Source of the DNA: Pyrinomonadaceae bacterium
GTDB taxonomy: Bacteria; Acidobacteriota; Blastocatellia; Pyrinomonadales; Pyrinomonadaceae
Assembly: GCA_035760365.1 (NCBI GenBank)
Contig: DASTTB010000015.1
Location: forward strand, 255,161 to 279,160
Reading direction: 5' to 3'
Length of the DNA stretch: 24,000 nucleotides
Shown here: in pieces, positions 15,753-23,900 of the stretch
Layout: each line of letters begins with the position of its first letter
Numbering within the stretch: the stretch's first letter is position 1
Notes under the pieces: model-generated
What the model saw: only the letters and a program-made list of their open reading frames with translations
The model's database searches: none
Told to the model about the DNA's origin: nothing
Translations under genes and position numbers: made by a program

Positions 15753-15826
15753 GCTTCCTGCCTTTCACTTTCACTAAGAACATTCTTGAGAGTTGCGAAA
15801 ATTCTACCATCGTCGCGCGCAACGCG

Positions 15827-17011
15827 TTATGCAATTCGACTGCATTTGTTAAGGTCGTCTTGCAGCGGTACCCCATTGAGGCATAACAGTCGGTAGGTTC
15901 GTTCGATAGTGTCTCGGTCCGCGTGCCACACGGTAGACGGGATCTTGAGCACGTTACAGACCTCCGCTACTGCTCGCATTCCCTTTTGCCACGAATCGTC
16001 GAACTCGGAAACCGCTGCGCGCGAGAACAATCCCGCTATCTTCCATGCCTCCAAGTGCGCGTTTTCCAGACGAATGCTGGGGTGTGGATGTGATTGCAGC
16101 ATTCCGGGATGCGGATTCACGCCAACGGATGGAATCTCGCGACTTCTTTCCTGCCCGAAAAGCACAAACGTGAACGCCATCGCAATGGACCACACGCGAA
16201 GCGCCTCACCAGCGGATTTGAAAATACTTTGCGGACCATACAAAGCTGAGAACCACTCGTTTACAGTGAATACCACAGCGAAAGAGTCCGCCTGAAGTTC
16301 GATCACCTGGCTTGGAATTGCAGGAAGCTGGCATGGTCCAGTCTCATCGACAAACGGTCCGAAGTCTTTTCGAATCTTTCTTGCGAACTTGTCGTGCCCC
16401 AGACACCAATGTCCGATCTCGTGAAAGAACACGAAGTCGAGGGCGAACATCGTGAGGTATCCGGCAAAGACGGCGCGTTCGCCTTTCGCCAATGTCGCGC
16501 CACTGCCTTTCGGCAAAGACTGAAGCGCGGCGCCGACAGACAAGTTCCAGTTCCACGCTGAAAGATCGTCAAACCACTTGACCTGCTTGTTCGGTTCTCC
16601 GACGTCCGGAAGTACCTCGGGATGCGACAACAGAACCTGGAAAAAGTATCCCAGGTCCCAAACGGCCCCCGTAAAGACGCCGATGAACGCCGATTTCCGT
16701 ATTCCCGTAACCGCTGCGTTTAAATGCGGATTGTCTACCAAATCAACGTACGCTGAACGAAGCGCGCGTGAGTAAAGACCGCCGCGCTGCATCTTTCGCA
16801 GGTAGTCCCAGTAACGTCGCTTGAACCAACCGGGAAGAAGCGCCGCGTTATCCTCCGGTTTGATGTTGTACCTGCCGCCAAAGGGTTCGAAGAACTTTTT
16901 GAATAGAGCCCCGCGGAGTGGCATTCGCGGAACGGCGGAAGCGTCGTAGGCCGGGAACCACGGATCAAAAACAAATTGTGAGGTCACTTCGTTTGCCGGC
17001 ATTTCATTCAC
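15827..17011 (-). CDS. Hypothetical protein with an ImmA/IrrE (M78)-like HExxH metalloprotease motif
   Basis: 394-aa ORF. FFHEIGHWCLGH (His197 codon at 16421-16423) is followed about 37 residues later by IELQADSFAV, resembling the HExGH...E.xA[ND].FA pattern of COG2856/M78 peptidases. GTG start at 17011; alternative ATG at 17002. Confidence 0.75.
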   Translation of the reverse strand: MNEMPANEVTSQFVFDPWFPAYDASAVPRMPLRGALFKKFFEPFGGRYNIKPEDNAALLPGWFKRRYWDYLRKMQRGGLYSRALRSAYVDLVDNPHLNAAVTGIRKSAFIGVFTGAVWDLGYFFQVLLSHPEVLPDVGEPNKQVKWFDDLSAWNWNLSVGAALQSLPKGSGATLAKGERAVFAGYLTMFALDFVFFHEIGHWCLGHDKFARKIRKDFGPFVDETGPCQLPAIPSQVIELQADSFAVVFTVNEWFSALYGPQSIFKSAGEALRVWSIAMAFTFVLFGQERSREIPSVGVNPHPGMLQSHPHPSIRLENAHLEAWKIAGLFSRAAVSEFDDSWQKGMRAVAEVCNVLKIPSTVWHADRDTIERTYRLLCLNGVPLQDDLNKCSRIA

Positions 17012-17035
17012 ACTGACAGCGGCAGAAACTATAAT
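17007..17035 (+). promoter_or_regulatory. Near-consensus sigma70-type promoter (TTCACA-N17-TATAAT) for the isocitrate-lyase-like gene
   Basis: -35 ttcaca at 17007-17012, a 17-nt spacer, -10 tataat at 17030-17035. ATG 17045 begins 9 nt after the -10 box, implying a leaderless or near-leaderless mRNA. The -35 overlaps the start codon of the divergent gene. Confidence 0.45.
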
Positions 17036-17044
17036 TCACATGAA

Positions 17045-17848
17045 ATGAACGACCTGGACCAAAAACAACTCTCACTCGAATCGGAGCCGGAAGAAATAAA
17101 AGCCCTGTTCGCGAAGCTGGTTGTTTTTCTGCAAGGTGCAAACCGGAAATGGATCGACACAACAGCTCGTAGGCTTTCCGAAGAAGACATTCGCGAGTAC
17201 TTGCTCAGCTATACCGAGTTCGGAGGACAGTCCGACATCTCTCGACTGCTTCACGCGTATGTCGTCACAAAAGCGCTGCTCGACGCCGGTTCGTCCATCA
17301 TCGAATTCGGCGATGACTTACCGCGAACGGATGATGACGGCCGAGTGCTTGGTCCAACACGTTACCTGCTGGAAAAGATCAATGCCGCCCGCTTTGCGGC
17401 CGACGTTTGCGGCACATCGACGATACTGATGGCCACGACGTTCGCGAGGGTCGCGCAATACGTGAGCTCTGACATCGATCCGCGCGATCGTGAATTTATA
17501 TGCGGTCAGCGCACGGCGGCGGGAGTGTTTCCCTACCGAGCCAGCTTGAGGGCTGCTATCGCACGAGGCCTCGCTTACGCTCCGTACGCTGATCTCGTCT
17601 GCTTTGAGTGCCCGACCGTCGACTTGTCCGAAGCCCAGGAATTCGCCAAAAGTGTTCACGCGGAGATTCCACAGCGCTTCCTCGCTTACAACTGTTCAGC
17701 CCTGCACAAAGAGAACAAACTCGAACGTAAAGATATCGAAGAGATCCAACGCAAACTGGGACGCATGGGTTATGTTTTGCTGTTCAGTTCGCTTGGCGGC
17801 TTCGGAACGCTGGTCCGAACTGCAAACTCCGCCGGAGCTTTCAGGTGA
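17045..17848 (+). CDS. Truncated isocitrate lyase homologue lacking the catalytic KKCGH loop (pseudoenzyme or gene remnant)
   Basis: 267-aa intact ORF. RGLAYAPYADLV (17564-17599) is identical to the segment I recall from E. coli AceA. FLAYNCS, INAARFAADV, DIDPRDREFICGQRT and MGY align with ICL. The position of KKCGH reads LPRTD (about 17318-17332). Roughly the first 150 and last 90 residues of a canonical ICL are absent. Confidence 0.75.
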   Translation: MNDLDQKQLSLESEPEEIKALFAKLVVFLQGANRKWIDTTARRLSEEDIREYLLSYTEFGGQSDISRLLHAYVVTKALLDAGSSIIEFGDDLPRTDDDGRVLGPTRYLLEKINAARFAADVCGTSTILMATTFARVAQYVSSDIDPRDREFICGQRTAAGVFPYRASLRAAIARGLAYAPYADLVCFECPTVDLSEAQEFAKSVHAEIPQRFLAYNCSALHKENKLERKDIEEIQRKLGRMGYVLLFSSLGGFGTLVRTANSAGAFR

Positions 17849-18317
17849 ACGGATAAAACCCAATCGCTTGAGCGCCGATCACGTAGAGTAAAAACACAAA
17901 ACTCGCCAGAAACAATACGAGGCCGGCTTTACCCCATCTCCTCTTAGTCGTTCGTAATCTCTTTACCGCAACGCTCTTTTCGTAATCGGTGTTTGCTTTA
18001 TAGCTCCTCGGAAAAACTCCGACCACCGTACAAACGATCGTAGCAACCAGCAAAACGACCGGAACGAAGACCAATATTCTCGCCGGTCGATGACTCGCGA
18101 TAAACGGATCCTTCACATACTCACGAACGGCGGCTGAGTACATTGCAATAACGATTCCGCTCGTCGTCGCTATGTACTTCAGGATCTCGGTTAAGTTATC
18201 GACACTCTTTTTGTATAACTCGTCGAACTCGACGACGGCCACGGGAGGTTCTTCGGGCGCAGCACCGATAACTACAGGCGTTGTCTTTAGGTCAGGACTA
18301 CTTTTCATCGCTGACAT
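17841..18317 (-). CDS. Small integral membrane protein (about 3 predicted TM segments)
   Basis: 158-aa ORF. Hydrophobic stretches YIATTSGIVIAMYSAAV, ILVFVPVVLLVATIVCTVVGVF and AGLVLFLASFVFLLYVIGAQAIGF. Its start overlaps the upstream gene by 20 nt. Its stop overlaps the convergent ICL-like stop within tcaggtga (17841-17848). Confidence 0.7.
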   Translation of the reverse strand: MSAMKSSPDLKTTPVVIGAAPEEPPVAVVEFDELYKKSVDNLTEILKYIATTSGIVIAMYSAAVREYVKDPFIASHRPARILVFVPVVLLVATIVCTVVGVFPRSYKANTDYEKSVAVKRLRTTKRRWGKAGLVLFLASFVFLLYVIGAQAIGFYPFT

Positions 18318-18519
18318 CCAGGACCATCAGGAGATTGAACGTTTCCGGACTTATCGAGATCGAGTTTGCGGTTCCACAATGTTCACAGTAGAAGTTGACG
18401 CGTCTGGGTTGCATCAGATTGAGGACTTGCAGACCGAACAGTTCTCGCCTCTCGTCGGCCGGCAACTTCATTCCACTGACCTCGCTGCACTTGCGACATA
18501 TAAAATGTAGGGCTTCCAT
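18298..18519 (-). CDS. Small zinc-ribbon protein (CxxC...CxxC)
   Basis: MEALHFICRKCSEV...NFYCEHCGTAN has two CxxC pairs. ATG 18519 is preceded by GAGGA about 7 nt upstream. The ORF track extends to a TTG start at 18627, adding a 36-residue low-complexity N-extension with AGGAAG upstream, so the start is uncertain. Confidence 0.5.
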   Translation of the reverse strand: MEALHFICRKCSEVSGMKLPADERRELFGLQVLNLMQPRRVNFYCEHCGTANSISISPETFNLLMVLDVSDEK

Positions 18520-18711
18520 AATCGATCCTCTGAGCGGCAAGTTGTCCCTGGATTGCGCGGCAGTTCGACTGTTCGCGAGCACGTGAGGGTCATATTTTGA
18601 CTTGCGGGAGAGAGATTGGTCAACCAAATCCGTGTTCTTCCTGTGTACGCAACATCAGCTAAGGCAGCGCTCATAGGGAACACGGATAAAAACGAATTTC
18701 AAATTAGGATA

Positions 18712-20913
18712 CTACCAACGCTTCGCGGCAATGATGTATAACCGGCTGGCGGTCGCGACGTAAAGTGAATCGCCGTTCACGGTCGGACGCGAATAGAGCG
18801 GCGCATCCATCTGAATCTCACCCAGCAATTCCTTTTTGCGTCCCGCACGAAGAACGGTCATAAGTCCTTCAGCGTTTCCAACGTAAAGGCGATCGCCCGC
18901 GAGCAGGAAACATCCCCAGATCGCATCGTTCGTCTCGTGCTTCCATAGATGCGCGCCGGTGACAGCGTCAAGACAATGAACGGTTCCGCTCAAGTCGCCA
19001 ACATACAGCAGACCATCCTTTACGATCGGCGTTCCCACCACGCGGCCGACTTGGGATGAACGCCACAAGAGCCCGCTCTTCGTAACGTCGCCCTGGCCGT
19101 TGGGACTGACGGCGTAAACAAACGACGGCGCATTGCCGTGCCCCGGAGATTGGCCCATCGCGATGAAGACACGGCCGTCGGCGAAGACGGGCGAAGCGAT
19201 GATCGAACTACGCGAAAACACACCCGGACGTGGAAGAAAGCGCGCGTCTTTCGGATTGCCGTCAAAGCGCCATACTTCCTGCCCCGACACACCATCGAAA
19301 GCGCGCAGCACACCGTCTCCACCGCCGTAGAACACCTGAATACGCCCGTTGACGTTGCCCGCCGCGGGACTGGCCCAGTCGCCGTGCAGCACACGATCTC
19401 CGGCTCCGATCGCACGCCAGACGACTTCGCCCGAGTGCTTGTTCACCGCGATCAGGTTTGGAGCGCGTGGCGATGGAACGCGCGTGTGGCCTTCATTCTG
19501 TCCGTTTGAAGTACCGACGACGAGCAGATCACCCAGCGGCAACACTTCACTGTTGCACGCTTCGTGAGGAAAGACTCCGAGCGCGGGCATGTCGACTTGC
19601 CAGATGATGTCGGCGGCTGCGTTGTCTTTGAAGACCTCGTCGCGATATGGACCATCGTTTTCGCCGTCGCCGAAACCTTTCGTGTCGAGAGAACGGAGTT
19701 GACACTCGGCGTTGACGTAGTACAGGCGATCGCCTTCGACGTAAGGAACGCTTGTCGTCGAAGGCAAAAGGAACTCTCTCAGGCCGCGTCGCGCGACTCG
19801 CGGGGCCACGTCCTGCCAAAGGAACGCGCCGTCCGTCACGCGAAACGCCATGAGCACGCCTGCGTCATCCTGAAACGCGGGATTCATTTGCCGCGTGTTG
19901 TCAGTGCCGACATAAACCACAGCGCCGGCGACGACCGGACTGCCATACACTTCGTTTCCCAACTCGACGCTCCAGACGATGTTTCGCCCCGTGTTTGTAT
20001 CCCAGTCAACGGGAGGATTGCCGGTTTGCGTGACGATCGTCTGGAGTTGGATCGAAGGCACTGGCGCGTTGGTTGGGGCGACAGAGTTTGCGGATTCGAT
20101 TCCGGCGATGCGGTTCAACGCCCACTCGACTTCGTGACGCAGTACGGGATCCTTTGCGGCTGCTTTCAGTGGTTCCTGGGCTGAGCGAGCCTTCGGCCCG
20201 ATGCTTCCAAGCGCCCCGGCCGCGCAGATGCGAACATACAGAAACTCATCCTTCAGCGCTTCGATCAGTTGAGGCACCGCCGGCGCCGCGCCTGGGCCAA
20301 TGGTTCCGAGAGCTTCACCTGCGGCCCAGCGGACGCCGGGCGTCGGATCGCTCAACGCTCTAGCGAGATCCTTAGTCGCCGCGACTGCTTTCGGACCGAT
20401 GGATGCCAACGCCTCCGCCGCGTAAATGCGAACGTGTGGTTCCTCATGCGAGAGCGCATGGACCAGGGCGCGTACCGAAGGACTCGCCTTGTCACGCAAC
20501 GCGCCGAGTGCACGTGCGGCATCGGCTGCAACCATCGAATCTTCGTCTCTGAGCGCGCGTCTCAACGCCGGTTGAACTGAAACCGAATCGGGCGCGAGAT
20601 CGATAAAAGCATCAGCGGCAAAGCGCCGGAAAGAGACCTGCTGATGACGAAGGAGTTCCAGCAGCAACGGAATTGCGGGTGGACCGATCTGGCGAATGAT
20701 TTCAAACGTCTCCTCGTGAAGCGCGTCGTCGTCGGTGTTGAGGAATCGTCTGAGTAAAGGCAACGAACGCACGCCGTCATGGACGAGCGCGGCTTCGGCG
20801 GTTGTGCGGATCTTCGCGTCGTTGGACATCAGACGATCTGCCCAACGTTTGGTTTGCGCGACTGATTGGATCGGAAGAATAAGCAGCAGCGTGAAGATAA
20901 AGACGTGTCGCAT
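18712..20913 (-). CDS. Secreted HEAT-repeat plus PQQ-like (BamB-like) beta-propeller protein
   Basis: 733-aa ORF. Signal peptide MRHVFIFTLLLILPIQSVAQ. HEAT/PBS-lyase-type repeats (VRIYAAEALASIGPKAV, VRWAAGEALGTIGPGAAPAVPQLIEAL, VRICAAGALGSIGPKA). Repeated propeller blades follow (VVYVGTDN, GEVVWRA, LYVGDLSGTVHCLDAVTGAHLWKH). It starts 6 nt after the upstream stop. Confidence 0.85.
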   Translation of the reverse strand: MRHVFIFTLLLILPIQSVAQTKRWADRLMSNDAKIRTTAEAALVHDGVRSLPLLRRFLNTDDDALHEETFEIIRQIGPPAIPLLLELLRHQQVSFRRFAADAFIDLAPDSVSVQPALRRALRDEDSMVAADAARALGALRDKASPSVRALVHALSHEEPHVRIYAAEALASIGPKAVAATKDLARALSDPTPGVRWAAGEALGTIGPGAAPAVPQLIEALKDEFLYVRICAAGALGSIGPKARSAQEPLKAAAKDPVLRHEVEWALNRIAGIESANSVAPTNAPVPSIQLQTIVTQTGNPPVDWDTNTGRNIVWSVELGNEVYGSPVVAGAVVYVGTDNTRQMNPAFQDDAGVLMAFRVTDGAFLWQDVAPRVARRGLREFLLPSTTSVPYVEGDRLYYVNAECQLRSLDTKGFGDGENDGPYRDEVFKDNAAADIIWQVDMPALGVFPHEACNSEVLPLGDLLVVGTSNGQNEGHTRVPSPRAPNLIAVNKHSGEVVWRAIGAGDRVLHGDWASPAAGNVNGRIQVFYGGGDGVLRAFDGVSGQEVWRFDGNPKDARFLPRPGVFSRSSIIASPVFADGRVFIAMGQSPGHGNAPSFVYAVSPNGQGDVTKSGLLWRSSQVGRVVGTPIVKDGLLYVGDLSGTVHCLDAVTGAHLWKHETNDAIWGCFLLAGDRLYVGNAEGLMTVLRAGRKKELLGEIQMDAPLYSRPTVNGDSLYVATASRLYIIAAKRW

Positions 20914-20919
20914 TGTTCA

Positions 20920-23900
20920 TTAGCGTGCGTCGCCGATCAGCGCAAAGCCGGCCCAATAATATGGATGTTGAGTCTCGGCTAATCGCCGAACCGACAAAAC
21001 GCTTTGATGTAAAGCGCGACCTTTGGACACCGGACTCTTGATAGAAGAATAAAATTCATTGAAAAGCGTCGATTGTGTTCGCGATTCAACCTGCCAACGA
21101 CTCACCAACGTCGCACGCGTGCCCGCCACAAACCATCCCCACGAAAAACCAACCGCAGCCTCGCCGCTGATGCCGGGTTTCGACTGCGCCGTCGATAAAA
21201 CAACGAGCTCGGCACTCGATGGCAGATTCATGATTTCACGAATCTGGAGAAACCCGTCTTGCCCGTCTCGTTCGCCTGTCGCAGACGAGAGCCCGATAAA
21301 CGACGACATCGGACTGGCGTCATCCAAAATGGCAGGCCCAGCGAAATGCATGATCTTTGCTCGCGAAATATCAGATTTCACCTGCTCTTCGTTTGCTTTC
21401 GGACCGACAGACAGGTGGGTTGTCGTTGGACCATAGGCCGTCGCGATACGCCTGAGCTCTTCTTCCTGCGCGGGAGACGATTCCAGCTTTACCCCGGCGT
21501 GAGCGAGCTCGGATCGAGTCGTAAACTCTTTCGACAACTCCGGATTTCCATACGCGAACAAATTGAGCCGCCCAACCGGCCCTGGAAGCGCCGGCTTTCT
21601 CATCTCACGCAGCGCCGAAAGCGATGGCGCGTACGAGACCTGCCTGTGGTCCACTACATACTGCTCCTCATCAGGTTGCAACGCTTCGAATGGCAAATGC
21701 CAAAGCATACCGTCGGGCACAAAGATCAGTTTCGACTTGAGCGCGATCTGGTCCTCCGCCGGCTTTACCAGCAACTCGTAGAGTTCGCGCGCGAGTTCAT
21801 CAAAGTTATCGGCGCGTGAGCTGAGTAATTGCTGAAACTGTCGCACTCTTGAGGCGAGTTGATTGTGTCTGATTTCCAGCGGATAAACTTTCAGATTGAT
21901 CTCGAACTGCCGTTTTCTTTGCGGGTTCTTTCCGGCAGCCTTGTCGGCGGTTAAGACGAACAGGTACGTGTTGTTCTCAGTGATCGTATATTCGAGAAGC
22001 GCCGTTGACGTGTCCGTGATCAGTAAACGCAGGTCGTCCAGTTTGAGTGGCGGCAGCTCACCGCGAATGATTTTCAAACCCGGATTGACGGTGAACACTT
22101 TCTGGCGAAACTCAGCGTACGACGCGCGAGCCCTTCGCAACTTGTCGCGCAGTTCGAGCCTTCGTGTTTCATTCGATAACCGTCGTTCTTCTTCACGATC
22201 GAGTTGAATTTGAAGCGAAGCAACCTCACCCGATAAACGTTGCTCCTGGCGACGCTGTTCGACGGAGAGCCCTTTCTGAGGAGTGACGTTGTTGTTCTTC
22301 AGTAGATCGATCAGCGATTGCGTCTTCGCACGTTCTGCATATTGAAACGCCTCGCTGGGACGATGCTGGTCCATCAAAAAGTCGATTGCGGCCAGATACG
22401 GCAACGTTCGGTTGTGATCGCCGATCCCTACGGCGGGCGATTCCGACCGGAGCGATTCCACCGTTGCGATCGCACCGGTCAACGCGCTGTACGCCTGCGG
22501 TCCATTTTCCAACTTTGCATGGGCCTTGCCCGCCAGCATCCGCGCGTACCATTGAAGTTCGCTGTTACCGAGACCTGTCGCGATCGTTACCGCGCTCTCG
22601 GCAGCGTTAAGCGCCTTTGTAAAATCCTTCTGAAGTAGAAACGCCTCAGAGACTCGCGTCAAAACTTCCGCCATTCTTTCCTGTTTACCAACAGACTTGA
22701 ACAAGCCGAGTGCTTTTTCGAAACTGTCTAACGCGTCGGAGTAATTCTTCTGGCGCAGGAGCGTAGAACCGATGCCGGCGAGCACGTCGCCCTGCCCCGA
22801 CTGGTCGTCCATCGCTTCACGTAACGCGAGGGCTTGACGGTACGAACTGAGCGAGGAGTCGTACGAAGCCTGTCGATAATAAACATTGCCTATCAGGGTC
22901 AGGACGCGCGCCATCTCGATCTTGTTTGATGTGGCTTCAAACTCTTTCAGCGCCTTGTCGTAGTAGATAAGCGCCTGGGCGTAGTCGCCCTGCAAAGCTC
23001 TGACGAAACCGATGCTGGCAAGAGTGGTGCCGATAGGAGCTTTGATCGTCTCGGCGATACTCAGGCTGTTGAGGTAATTCTCGAGCGCCGCGCCATAATC
23101 ACCGCGAGCGCGATGCACGTTGCCGATTCCCTTGAGCGCTGTGGCGAGACCGAGTTTGTCAGGTTGGGTTTTCTGAACTTCGAAACTGCGTTGATAGTTT
23201 TCGAGCGCCTCGTCGTAATTGCCCATGTAGTAGGCCGAATTTGCGGCGCCGTTCAGGGCTGCGATGGTCGCGCCGATTTCAGATCTGCCGGCTTGATCGA
23301 GCGACTTCTTGTAGAAACTCAATGCTTGCGTGTAGTCGCCCTGCATGTATAGAGCGTCGGCCAGGCGCACGACCGAATCGGAGTTGCTGTTTGCTTCAGC
23401 GCTCTTACGGAAAGCTGCGGCGGCGGCTGAATAGTTTCCCTGTCCATAATGGATCGTGCCGATCATGTTCAGGGTGTTGGCTACTTCGCGGTCGTCGCCG
23501 AGTGAGGTGAACTCCTGCAACACCTGCTGCAAAGCGGCGAGTGCTTCTGTGTCACGACGTTGCTCTTTGTAAATCAAAGCGAGGCCGGAGAGTGCTTTTG
23601 CTGATTCGTAAGGATTAGTAACCTCGGTGAAGAGGTCGCGCGCTTTTTGGTAGTGCTCCAACGCGGCCGGATAGTTCGCTTGAAAATAGAAGACAGTGCC
23701 GATGTCGAGGGACGCTGTCGCAACGCCTTCTTTATCGCCGATTTGCTCGGAGATATTTTGGGCGACTCCGTAGATATCGAACGCCGTTGAGTATCGCCCG
23801 GCCATCAATTGAGAGTGGCCTTGCCTGATCAGGGCTTTACGCAAATCAGGCGTCATCAGAGATTGATGTCTAGCAAGTAGCTGCTCGCGCTCTTCGGGAG

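Follow-up and report, generated by a model that had tools for sequence, protein, structure and literature searches.

A 24,000-nucleotide stretch of DNA from a Pyrinomonadaceae bacterium (assembly GCA_035760365.1, contig DASTTB010000015.1, positions 255,161 to 279,160 of the forward strand; hereafter the window) carries a short gene for a homologue of isocitrate lyase (ICL), back to back with a gene for an HExxH metallopeptidase. The short protein, here called the remnant, descends from ICL, is old, and is maintained by purifying selection in a genome that lacks the glyoxylate shunt. It is constantly paired with the peptidase, and the two genes lie together in an accessory block. We consider the remnant to be a catalytically dead, truncated and selected ICL descendant that most likely serves as a non-catalytic subunit of the peptidase, a reading that we favour with moderate confidence. 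Physical binding of the two proteins is suggested by structure prediction, and the remnant would then control or direct the peptidase. The gene had been described earlier by a sequence-only reading, made without database searches, and the outcome of its claims is given below with the results concerned.

Homology to isocitrate lyase and loss of the active site

The reading frame was intact, as the sequence-only reading had stated, with 267 codons and no internal stops at 17045-17848 of the forward strand. Upstream of the ATG the frame stays open for no more than about 20 codons, and from stop to stop it measures 288 amino acids. Against the Pfam ICL family (PF00463) the protein scored 98.8 bits (E 3.5e-28), over the gathering score of 26. 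Solved bacterial ICLs were all matched at E values of about 1e-43, with residues 62-256 of the query corresponding to AceA 160-358, and hhalign against a profile of 38 full-length ICLs gave a probability of 100 for remnant residues 60-260 over ICL 155-360. The conserved ICL blocks recognized earlier from the sequence (RGLAYAPYADLV, FLAYNCS, DPRDREFICGQRT and AARFAADV) were all found. Relative to ICL (AceA/Icl1, PF00463; PDB 1IGW, 3LG3 and 1F8I), the remnant is homologous over approximately ICL 118-361 at 42-49% identity, whereas about 117 N-terminal and 90 C-terminal residues, the KKCGH loop, the arginine of the ARTD motif and the Mg ligands are missing.

Alignment to ICLs showed what replaced the active site. 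The reported loss of the KKCGH loop was confirmed: EDQLaavKKCGHmgGKV of ICL reads GDDLPRTDD----DGRV in the window and is four residues shorter. HFEDQ has become EFGDD, NCSPSF has become NCSALH, and ARTD has become ATTF, so the substrate-binding arginine is lost. The distant orthologue described below (P0007) has QQEPG at the position of the catalytic loop and ASTF at that of ARTD, and it keeps DGE and EFEDQ. The earlier claim that the acidic Mg-binding motifs are altered was correct in that the acidic ligands are gone in the window clade (GGQ, EFGDD), but the segment YTEFGG does not lie opposite DAEAGFGG; both HMMER and hhalign place GGQSDISR (residues 60-67) there. Realignment with HMMER, hhalign and Foldseek did not recover the catalytic residues. 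Every catalytic determinant examined is lost, and about 45% of the ICL fold is gone.

It is very improbable that the remnant is still an enzyme, performing new chemistry with the remaining barrel residues either alone or complemented by the peptidase. Such an activity might account for the 62 positions that are invariant across the short forms and shared with at least 90% of ICLs, including D90, E188 and N/D216-C217-S218, as well as for the D-x-E and EFEDQ acidic motifs of the distant orthologue. However, both lineages lack the Cys/His/Lys loop, the arginine and the N-terminal third that binds the substrate, the acidic metal ligands differ between the two lineages, and only five of the eight barrel strands were confidently modelled. 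The NCBIfam equivalog cut-offs were also missed by far (176 against 562 bits for NF011645; 142 against 275.9 bits for TIGR01346).

Anatomy, fold and origin of the remnant

The AlphaFold2 model built on a 45-sequence alignment gave predicted local distance difference test (pLDDT) values of 80-97 for residues of about 70-250, with uncertain N-terminal helices; a first model from a 7-sequence alignment was poor (pLDDT 55). Five strands were modelled (85-89, 127-132, 184-188, 212-216 and 243-248), which, from the alignment and the published ICL structures, we take to be barrel strands 4-8. Foldseek superposed ICL structures at a root-mean-square deviation of about 2-2.7 Å across about 190 residues. 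A complete (beta/alpha)8 barrel is therefore not present: ICL residues 1-117 and those beyond 361 are gone, including barrel strands 1-2(3) and the C-terminal helices. What remains of ICL consists of a relic of the helix before strand 3, followed by strands β4-β8 with an inserted small domain. A homodimer prediction of the remnant scored 0.00, which gives no support and is not evidence of absence, and which fits the loss of the ICL tetramerisation helices.

The N-terminus had been described as unlike ICL. A segment of no detectable origin does exist, but it is shorter than stated, at about 37 residues only. In the distant orthologue, residues 33-275 align with ICL 118-361 of a full-length ICL without gaps at 55% identity, so by transitivity residues of about 38-59 of the window protein would be ICL-derived too. 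The family thus probably consists of ICL 118-361 and a new N-terminal segment of about 32-37 residues, where the ICL correspondence is certain for residues of about 60-260 and probable for 38-59. The new segment is helical in the AlphaFold2 model at low confidence (pLDDT 35-54), and E14, E16, L25, F28, L29, K35 and W36 within it are invariant, with the distant orthologue included. A MAFFT suggestion that residues of about 18-36 represent the ICL helix LARLGAERLW was unsupported, as hhalign gave no match for the N-terminal 59 residues. An Atlas search with the remnant from which the ICL families were excluded returned only ALAD matches at 0.70, which lie below the noise and were rejected.

The C-terminal limit is common to both lineages and lies at the same ICL position, just past strand 8. 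The window clade has additionally lost 17 residues ahead of the strand-3 relic, and the window's own subclade a further 4 residues in the former catalytic loop. In the tree, the short forms made up one group (Shimodaira-Hasegawa-like approximate likelihood ratio test, SH-aLRT, 99) on a very long stem, outside the ICL clade of the same genus. These features fit a single old truncation event, then fast change and then renewed constraint. Descent from the genus's own ICL was considered and is unsupported, since the short forms fall outside that clade; their exact position in the tree is unresolved, and long-branch effects were flagged.

Conservation of the short form and purifying selection

A search of 5.8 billion proteins returned five full-length close relatives (85-93% identity, 260-271 aa), one of them from a Pyrinomonadaceae metagenome-assembled genome, together with one 171-aa fragment and one distant relative, P0007 (276 aa, 45-48% identity). 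The short form is thus not unique to this genome, since its architecture and its ends recur in six close orthologues and in a deep one. In a profile search of 1.84 billion cluster representatives, only three clusters cover the N-terminal region of the remnant (the window clade, P0007 and one fragment), and all other matches are ordinary ICLs that start at position about 60.

The DNA of seven orthologous loci was compared with the window, and the frame was intact in all eight sequences. The ratio of nonsynonymous to synonymous substitution rates (dN/dS) was calculated by the Nei-Gojobori method for the close set. Across 15 pairwise comparisons it was 0.15-0.33 at dS of 0.1-0.47, with bootstrap 95% upper bounds of at most 0.61, so the substitutions are not neutral. 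By region, the ratio was about 0.2-0.4 for the new N-terminus and 0.13-0.20 for the ICL core, while the last 11 residues evolve about neutrally. The neighbouring peptidase gave 0.09-0.17 by the same method.

A plain aceA pseudogene fragment whose frame is still open by chance can hardly be entertained on these data. The loss of the catalytic residues, the cuts at both ends, the long branch and the nearly neutral last residues are what such a fragment would show. Against this, dN/dS is far under 1 in all 15 comparisons, the frame has survived in eight sequences, the truncation points are identical in an orthologue of only 45% identity, and the -10 box of the presumed promoter is conserved. The sequence-only reading had held that a repurposed pseudoenzyme fits at least as well as a decaying fragment; the conserved short form, the non-neutral substitution pattern and the absence of catalytic residues support the former.

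The family is narrowly distributed. Genome contigs of GTDB, scanned both with the protein and with the N-terminal alignment, gave no match beyond the window's own genome, and viral contigs contained no relative of the remnant or of the peptidase. Among 400 genomes of the phylum, only one peptidase homologue of about 31-33% identity and one marginal match (E 6.2e-4) were found. The locus does occur in soil metagenomes, with its DNA in at least 10 runs. The remnant family is very rare and is known only from uncultured soil bacteria.

ICL itself is patchy in the genus, with an ICL-family match in 10 of 24 genomes. Seven of these matches are ordinary full-length ICLs with 43-47% identity to the remnant, and the short form occurs in none of the 24. 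In one genome of the genus, the match (G007:C3:359619-360201) extends over two adjoining frames, open for 370 and 177 aa, as would be expected of an aceA with a frameshift.

A genome without the glyoxylate shunt

The window genome is 6.56 Mb in size and 97% complete. No other PF00463 match was found in it, so the separate full-length aceA for which a check had been proposed is missing from this genome, and malate synthase (PF01274) was not found either; one unrelated gene of the phosphoenolpyruvate (PEP)-mutase family lies on another contig. With no other ICL and no malate synthase, the remnant cannot serve a glyoxylate shunt. Nor is there a resident ICL for which it could act as subunit, regulator or dominant-negative partner. 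A split gene with the N-terminal ICL half elsewhere was ruled out by the same whole-genome search.

Constant pairing with a divergent HExxH metallopeptidase

The best clue to the present role of the remnant is a gene that the text of the sequence-only reading does not mention. A divergently oriented gene for an HExxH protein of about 391 aa adjoins the remnant in 8 of 8 loci, and the remnant was never seen without it. Its start, an ATG at 17002, is common to the orthologues. The motif HEIGHWCLGH and the downstream ELxAD are both conserved in the homologues, so the peptidase is probably active, as judged from sequence. As to its family, a weak M48 match was found around HExxH (E 6.4e-5), the orthologues carry precomputed PF10463.16 (Peptidase_U49, Lit) matches, and the nearest Atlas clusters are U49/M48. 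For the window peptidase, the local PF10463.15 model and PADLOC gave no Lit match, and Pfam M78 gave no match.

The peptidase at the P0007 locus is 58-63% identical to that of the window. Contigs L015 and L027 share an overlap of 150 nt (99.3% identity) and are therefore counted as one locus, that of P0007. Its organism is distant, its IF3 being 49-59% identical to those of the window's genus and of other families of the class alike. The surroundings differ as well: GreA, IF3, L35 and L20 on one side and AHSA1 with a helix-turn-helix (HTH) gene on the other at P0007, compared with DUF899 and HEAT-PQQ genes flanking the block in the window. The six close loci share their synteny and count as one, so that there are two independent observations of the pairing and not eight.

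Two further observations concern the peptidase family, which is itself rare, nine proteins having been found. In two loci (L027 773-1519 and L028 1264-2037), the gene immediately following the peptidase homologue codes for a conserved protein of 248-257 aa (68% identity between the two) with a weak sugar-isomerase (SIS) match. No counterpart of this protein was found in the genome of the window, and it is a candidate for a second enzyme-like partner of the family. The peptidase homologue on a metagenome contig (L028 1-1197) has an in-frame stop (FSKE*QVLL) and is either a pseudogene or affected by a sequencing error.

Predicted complex of the remnant and the peptidase

Prediction of the remnant together with the peptidase by ESMFold2 gave an interface score (ipSAE) of 0.66 (0.64-0.68 in three runs), and all three controls gave 0.00. 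In the calibration of the tool, this mark was reached by 58 of 80 solved complexes and by 2 of 110 mismatched pairs, a calibration that is only rough for user-supplied alignments. Predicted contacts on the remnant are R42-E46, helix H70-D80, β4 with the loop stump (S83-P93; β4 itself is S83-G89), S218 and β8 (L245-G254). Those on the peptidase are P227-S240 beside the ELQAD helix, the PSVGVNPHPGML loop at 291-302, N314-K321 and E367-P379. Of the five modelled strands, β4 opens and β8 closes the series, and their pairing partners in a full barrel would be strands 3 and 1. In the model, the peptidase would therefore sit where strands 1-3 of the remnant are missing.

The 31 interface positions of the peptidase were compared among homologues. 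In the deep orthologue, which is associated with a remnant, 81% of them (25/31) are identical to the window, compared with 61% elsewhere in the protein. In three other homologues (P0271, P0272 and P0273) the same positions are 35-42% identical, compared with about 49% elsewhere, and the absence of a remnant upstream was seen for P0273. This is a single comparison, and its sequences were part of the alignment used for the prediction. Family-specific substitutions fell in the predicted interface in 3 of 10 cases against about 1.2 expected, too few to count.

Weighing the role of the remnant

According to the reading that we favour, truncation would have left ICL residues of about 118-361, that is β4-β8 and the small inserted domain, with a new N-terminus of about 37 residues, and selection would keep the product. 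The peptidase would dock onto β4, β8 and helix 66-80, on the side without strands 1-3. The remnant would regulate the peptidase or lend it specificity, either as an inhibitor or keeper or as a substrate adaptor.

Several points weigh against this reading. The pairing is known from only two independent lineages, and binding is a model confidence obtained from shallow, user-made alignments. On the remnant, positions in the predicted interface show no clear excess of conservation (55%, compared with 48% elsewhere), and a divergent orientation is unusual for subunits of one complex. Peptidase homologues also occur without the remnant: one of 47% identity with 506 nt upstream (L026), one of 56% identity that is cut by an insertion sequence (IS) element and has no remnant upstream (L029), and two of about 30% identity (L019 and L030). 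The peptidase, then, does not need the remnant. Finally, no PADLOC or other defence model matched the remnant, and the peptidase gave only a weak capP match (E 0.0017).

Some of the same observations would be expected if the remnant were a selected non-catalytic protein unrelated to the peptidase, for example a dicarboxylate-binding protein or another regulator, and the adjacency reflected co-transfer in a cassette. Purifying selection would be explained equally, the genes do not form an operon, the peptidase occurs without the remnant in the four loci named above, and residues that line the pocket in β6-β8, among them the NCS motif and E188, are kept. However, most of the ICL ligand-binding residues are gone (R228, the KKCGH loop, the Mg ligands and the whole glyoxylate-binding N-terminal part), and the pair has been kept in two distant organisms whose neighbouring genes otherwise differ. 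The positive complex prediction with its clean controls and the peptidase interface residues that track the presence of the remnant also speak for a partnership. We regard an unrelated role as unlikely, though worth keeping in view.

A more speculative proposal is that the pair forms an undescribed conflict or defence module, in which the fossil of a host enzyme acts as bait or keeper for a Lit-like suicide protease, and an invader factor whose usual targets or binding partners are ICL-like proteins would displace or alter the remnant and thereby unleash the protease. To this we give a low probability.

Promoter, accessory block and neighbouring genes

The coordinates of the features are collected in Table 1. 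The near-consensus promoter named by the sequence-only reading was recovered with a match at 11 of 12 positions, in a 1.9-kb region that gave 3 promoter-like matches against 1.1 expected from shuffles. All six close loci have TATAAT at the same distance of 9 nt from the ATG, and the -35 box varies in two. With just 9 nt between the -10 box and the ATG, the transcript would have little or no leader. The two start codons of the divergent genes are separated by 42 nt in the window (17003-17044). This gap holds the forward-strand TATAAT, and its complement, as read from the sequence, gives TATAGT 25 nt upstream of the peptidase ATG. The divergent promoters may therefore share one AT-rich box and exclude each other.

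Table 1. Features of the remnant locus in window coordinates
Feature	Position	Strand	Basis or remark
Accessory block of 2.9 kb: peptidase, ICL remnant, membrane protein, Zn-ribbon protein	15771..18715		Missing in a same-genus genome
HExxH metallopeptidase (Lit/U49- or M48-like), 391 aa, divergent partner	15827..17002	-	Adjoins remnant in 8/8 loci
Zinc-binding motif HEIGHWCLGH of the peptidase	16394..16423	-	Translation; H194, E195, H198, G202 and H203 invariant in 11 homologues
Promoter-like TTCACA-17-TATAAT	17007..17035	+	Scan, 11/12 positions; -10 box conserved in orthologues
Coding sequence of the short ICL-derived protein	17045..17848	+	Open reading frame list, 267 aa plus stop; PF00463 E 3.5e-28; orthologues 260-276 aa; dN/dS 0.15-0.33
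N-terminal segment of about 37 residues, no detectable homology	17045..17155	+	No hhalign match to ICL profile; dN/dS of residues 1-61 about 0.2-0.4
ICL-derived part, residues 38-260, approximately ICL 118-361	17156..17824	+	hhalign, P0007 alignment, AlphaFold2, Foldseek
Degenerate active-site segment IEFGDDLPRTDDDGR, in place of VHFEDQL..KKCGH..GK of ICL	17300..17344	+	Translation; alignments with solved ICLs and 38 full-length ICLs
ATTF where ICL has ARTD	17432..17443	+	Alignments; deep orthologue has ASTF
Membrane protein, 158 aa, convergent, overlaps remnant stop by 8 nt	17841..18317	-	Present in window, L016, L017, L022, L024 and L025; not in L023 or L015

The block was delimited by comparison with a genome of the same genus, G454 (L036 1237-1498), in which the DUF899 and HEAT-PQQ genes lie 262 nt apart, compared with 2,945 nt and four genes in the window. 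Homology between the two ends at 15770 and restarts at 18716, and the 262-nt spacer of G454 holds a small open reading frame of about 50 codons. In 11 same-genus genomes with an orthologous HEAT-PQQ gene (74-81% identity), G454 among them, none of the four block genes was found in the flank (up to 1.5 kb, less at contig ends). No convincing direct repeats flank the block. The site looks like a variable hotspot, and two of the loci (L016 and L017) have an extra glyoxalase gene there.

The remaining two genes of the block code for a 109-aa Zn-ribbon protein and the 158-aa membrane protein, which weakly matches PycTM, a transmembrane effector of Pycsar (E 5.9e-5), and also, weakly, TctB. As both genes are missing in L023 and at the deep locus, they are optional neighbours.

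In the wider window, the reverse strand at 18712-23856 codes for a TPR-CHAT protein of 978 aa and, immediately after it, for a 733-aa protein that combines HEAT repeats with a PQQ-type β-propeller. Conservation of this HEAT-PQQ gene, at 72% identity or more, extends to at least 17 other genomes of the genus. The presence of TPR-CHAT suits a defence or conflict island and is no proof of one.

Relation to known systems and significance

Our literature search found no description of an ICL-derived pseudoenzyme. The remnant combines homology to an enzyme family without its catalytic residues, on the one hand, with purifying selection and conservation in another lineage, on the other, both of them marks of a pseudoenzyme. 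In the representative library, a nearly full-length ICL-like protein of 377 aa (P0212) has a different degenerate loop (SEARGLGHGGG) and CARTG, and is a candidate for a further pseudoenzyme that arose from ICL independently.

In the split ICL2 of Mycobacterium tuberculosis H37Rv (Rv1915/Rv1916, aceAa/aceAb), a single recent disruption gave rise to two complementary halves, of which the N-terminal one retains the catalytic motif. It resembles the present case in that an ICL-family product is much shorter than full ICL. The remnant differs in having no second half in its genome, in the loss of the motif, and in the age and selective maintenance of the short form.

EF-Tu with bound T4 Gol peptide is the substrate of Lit, a protease of the Peptidase U49 family from the e14 element of E. 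coli. Like Lit, the peptidase of the pair has an HExxH motif, its orthologues and Atlas clusters have U49 links, and Lit too acts only jointly with a housekeeping protein. Unlike Lit, which itself is not known to have a dedicated partner gene, it gave no match to the local PF10463 model or in PADLOC, and no phage link was found.

In ImmA-ImmR, IrrE-DdrO and CapP-CapH, the partner is an HTH repressor that is cleaved by the protease. A small HExxH protease beside a dedicated partner is common to these pairs and the present one, in keeping with the weak capP match, but the partner here is an enzyme remnant with ICL as its only Pfam domain and without a DNA-binding domain. Pseudoenzyme regulators, such as the pseudo-caspase cFLIP with caspase-8, are usually dead paralogues paired with an active relative. 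The remnant is likewise a dead homologue under selection that is predicted to work by binding; in contrast, it is a dead metabolic lyase beside an unrelated protease.

In summary, functional statements that go past selection and gene pairing are predictions, made for a family of three clusters among 1.84 billion representatives. The remnant would be the first ICL-derived pseudoenzyme to be described. It would also be a natural broken TIM barrel, with five of eight strands, that has been kept by selection, apparently through docking on an unrelated protease, which bears on the survival and evolution of partial barrels. If the pair does act in defence, the remnant would be a natural partial TIM barrel of five strands that depends for its stability on a heterologous partner over the side without strands 1-3. 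The finding also bears on the control of Lit/U49-like proteases, a large and mostly uncharacterised group.

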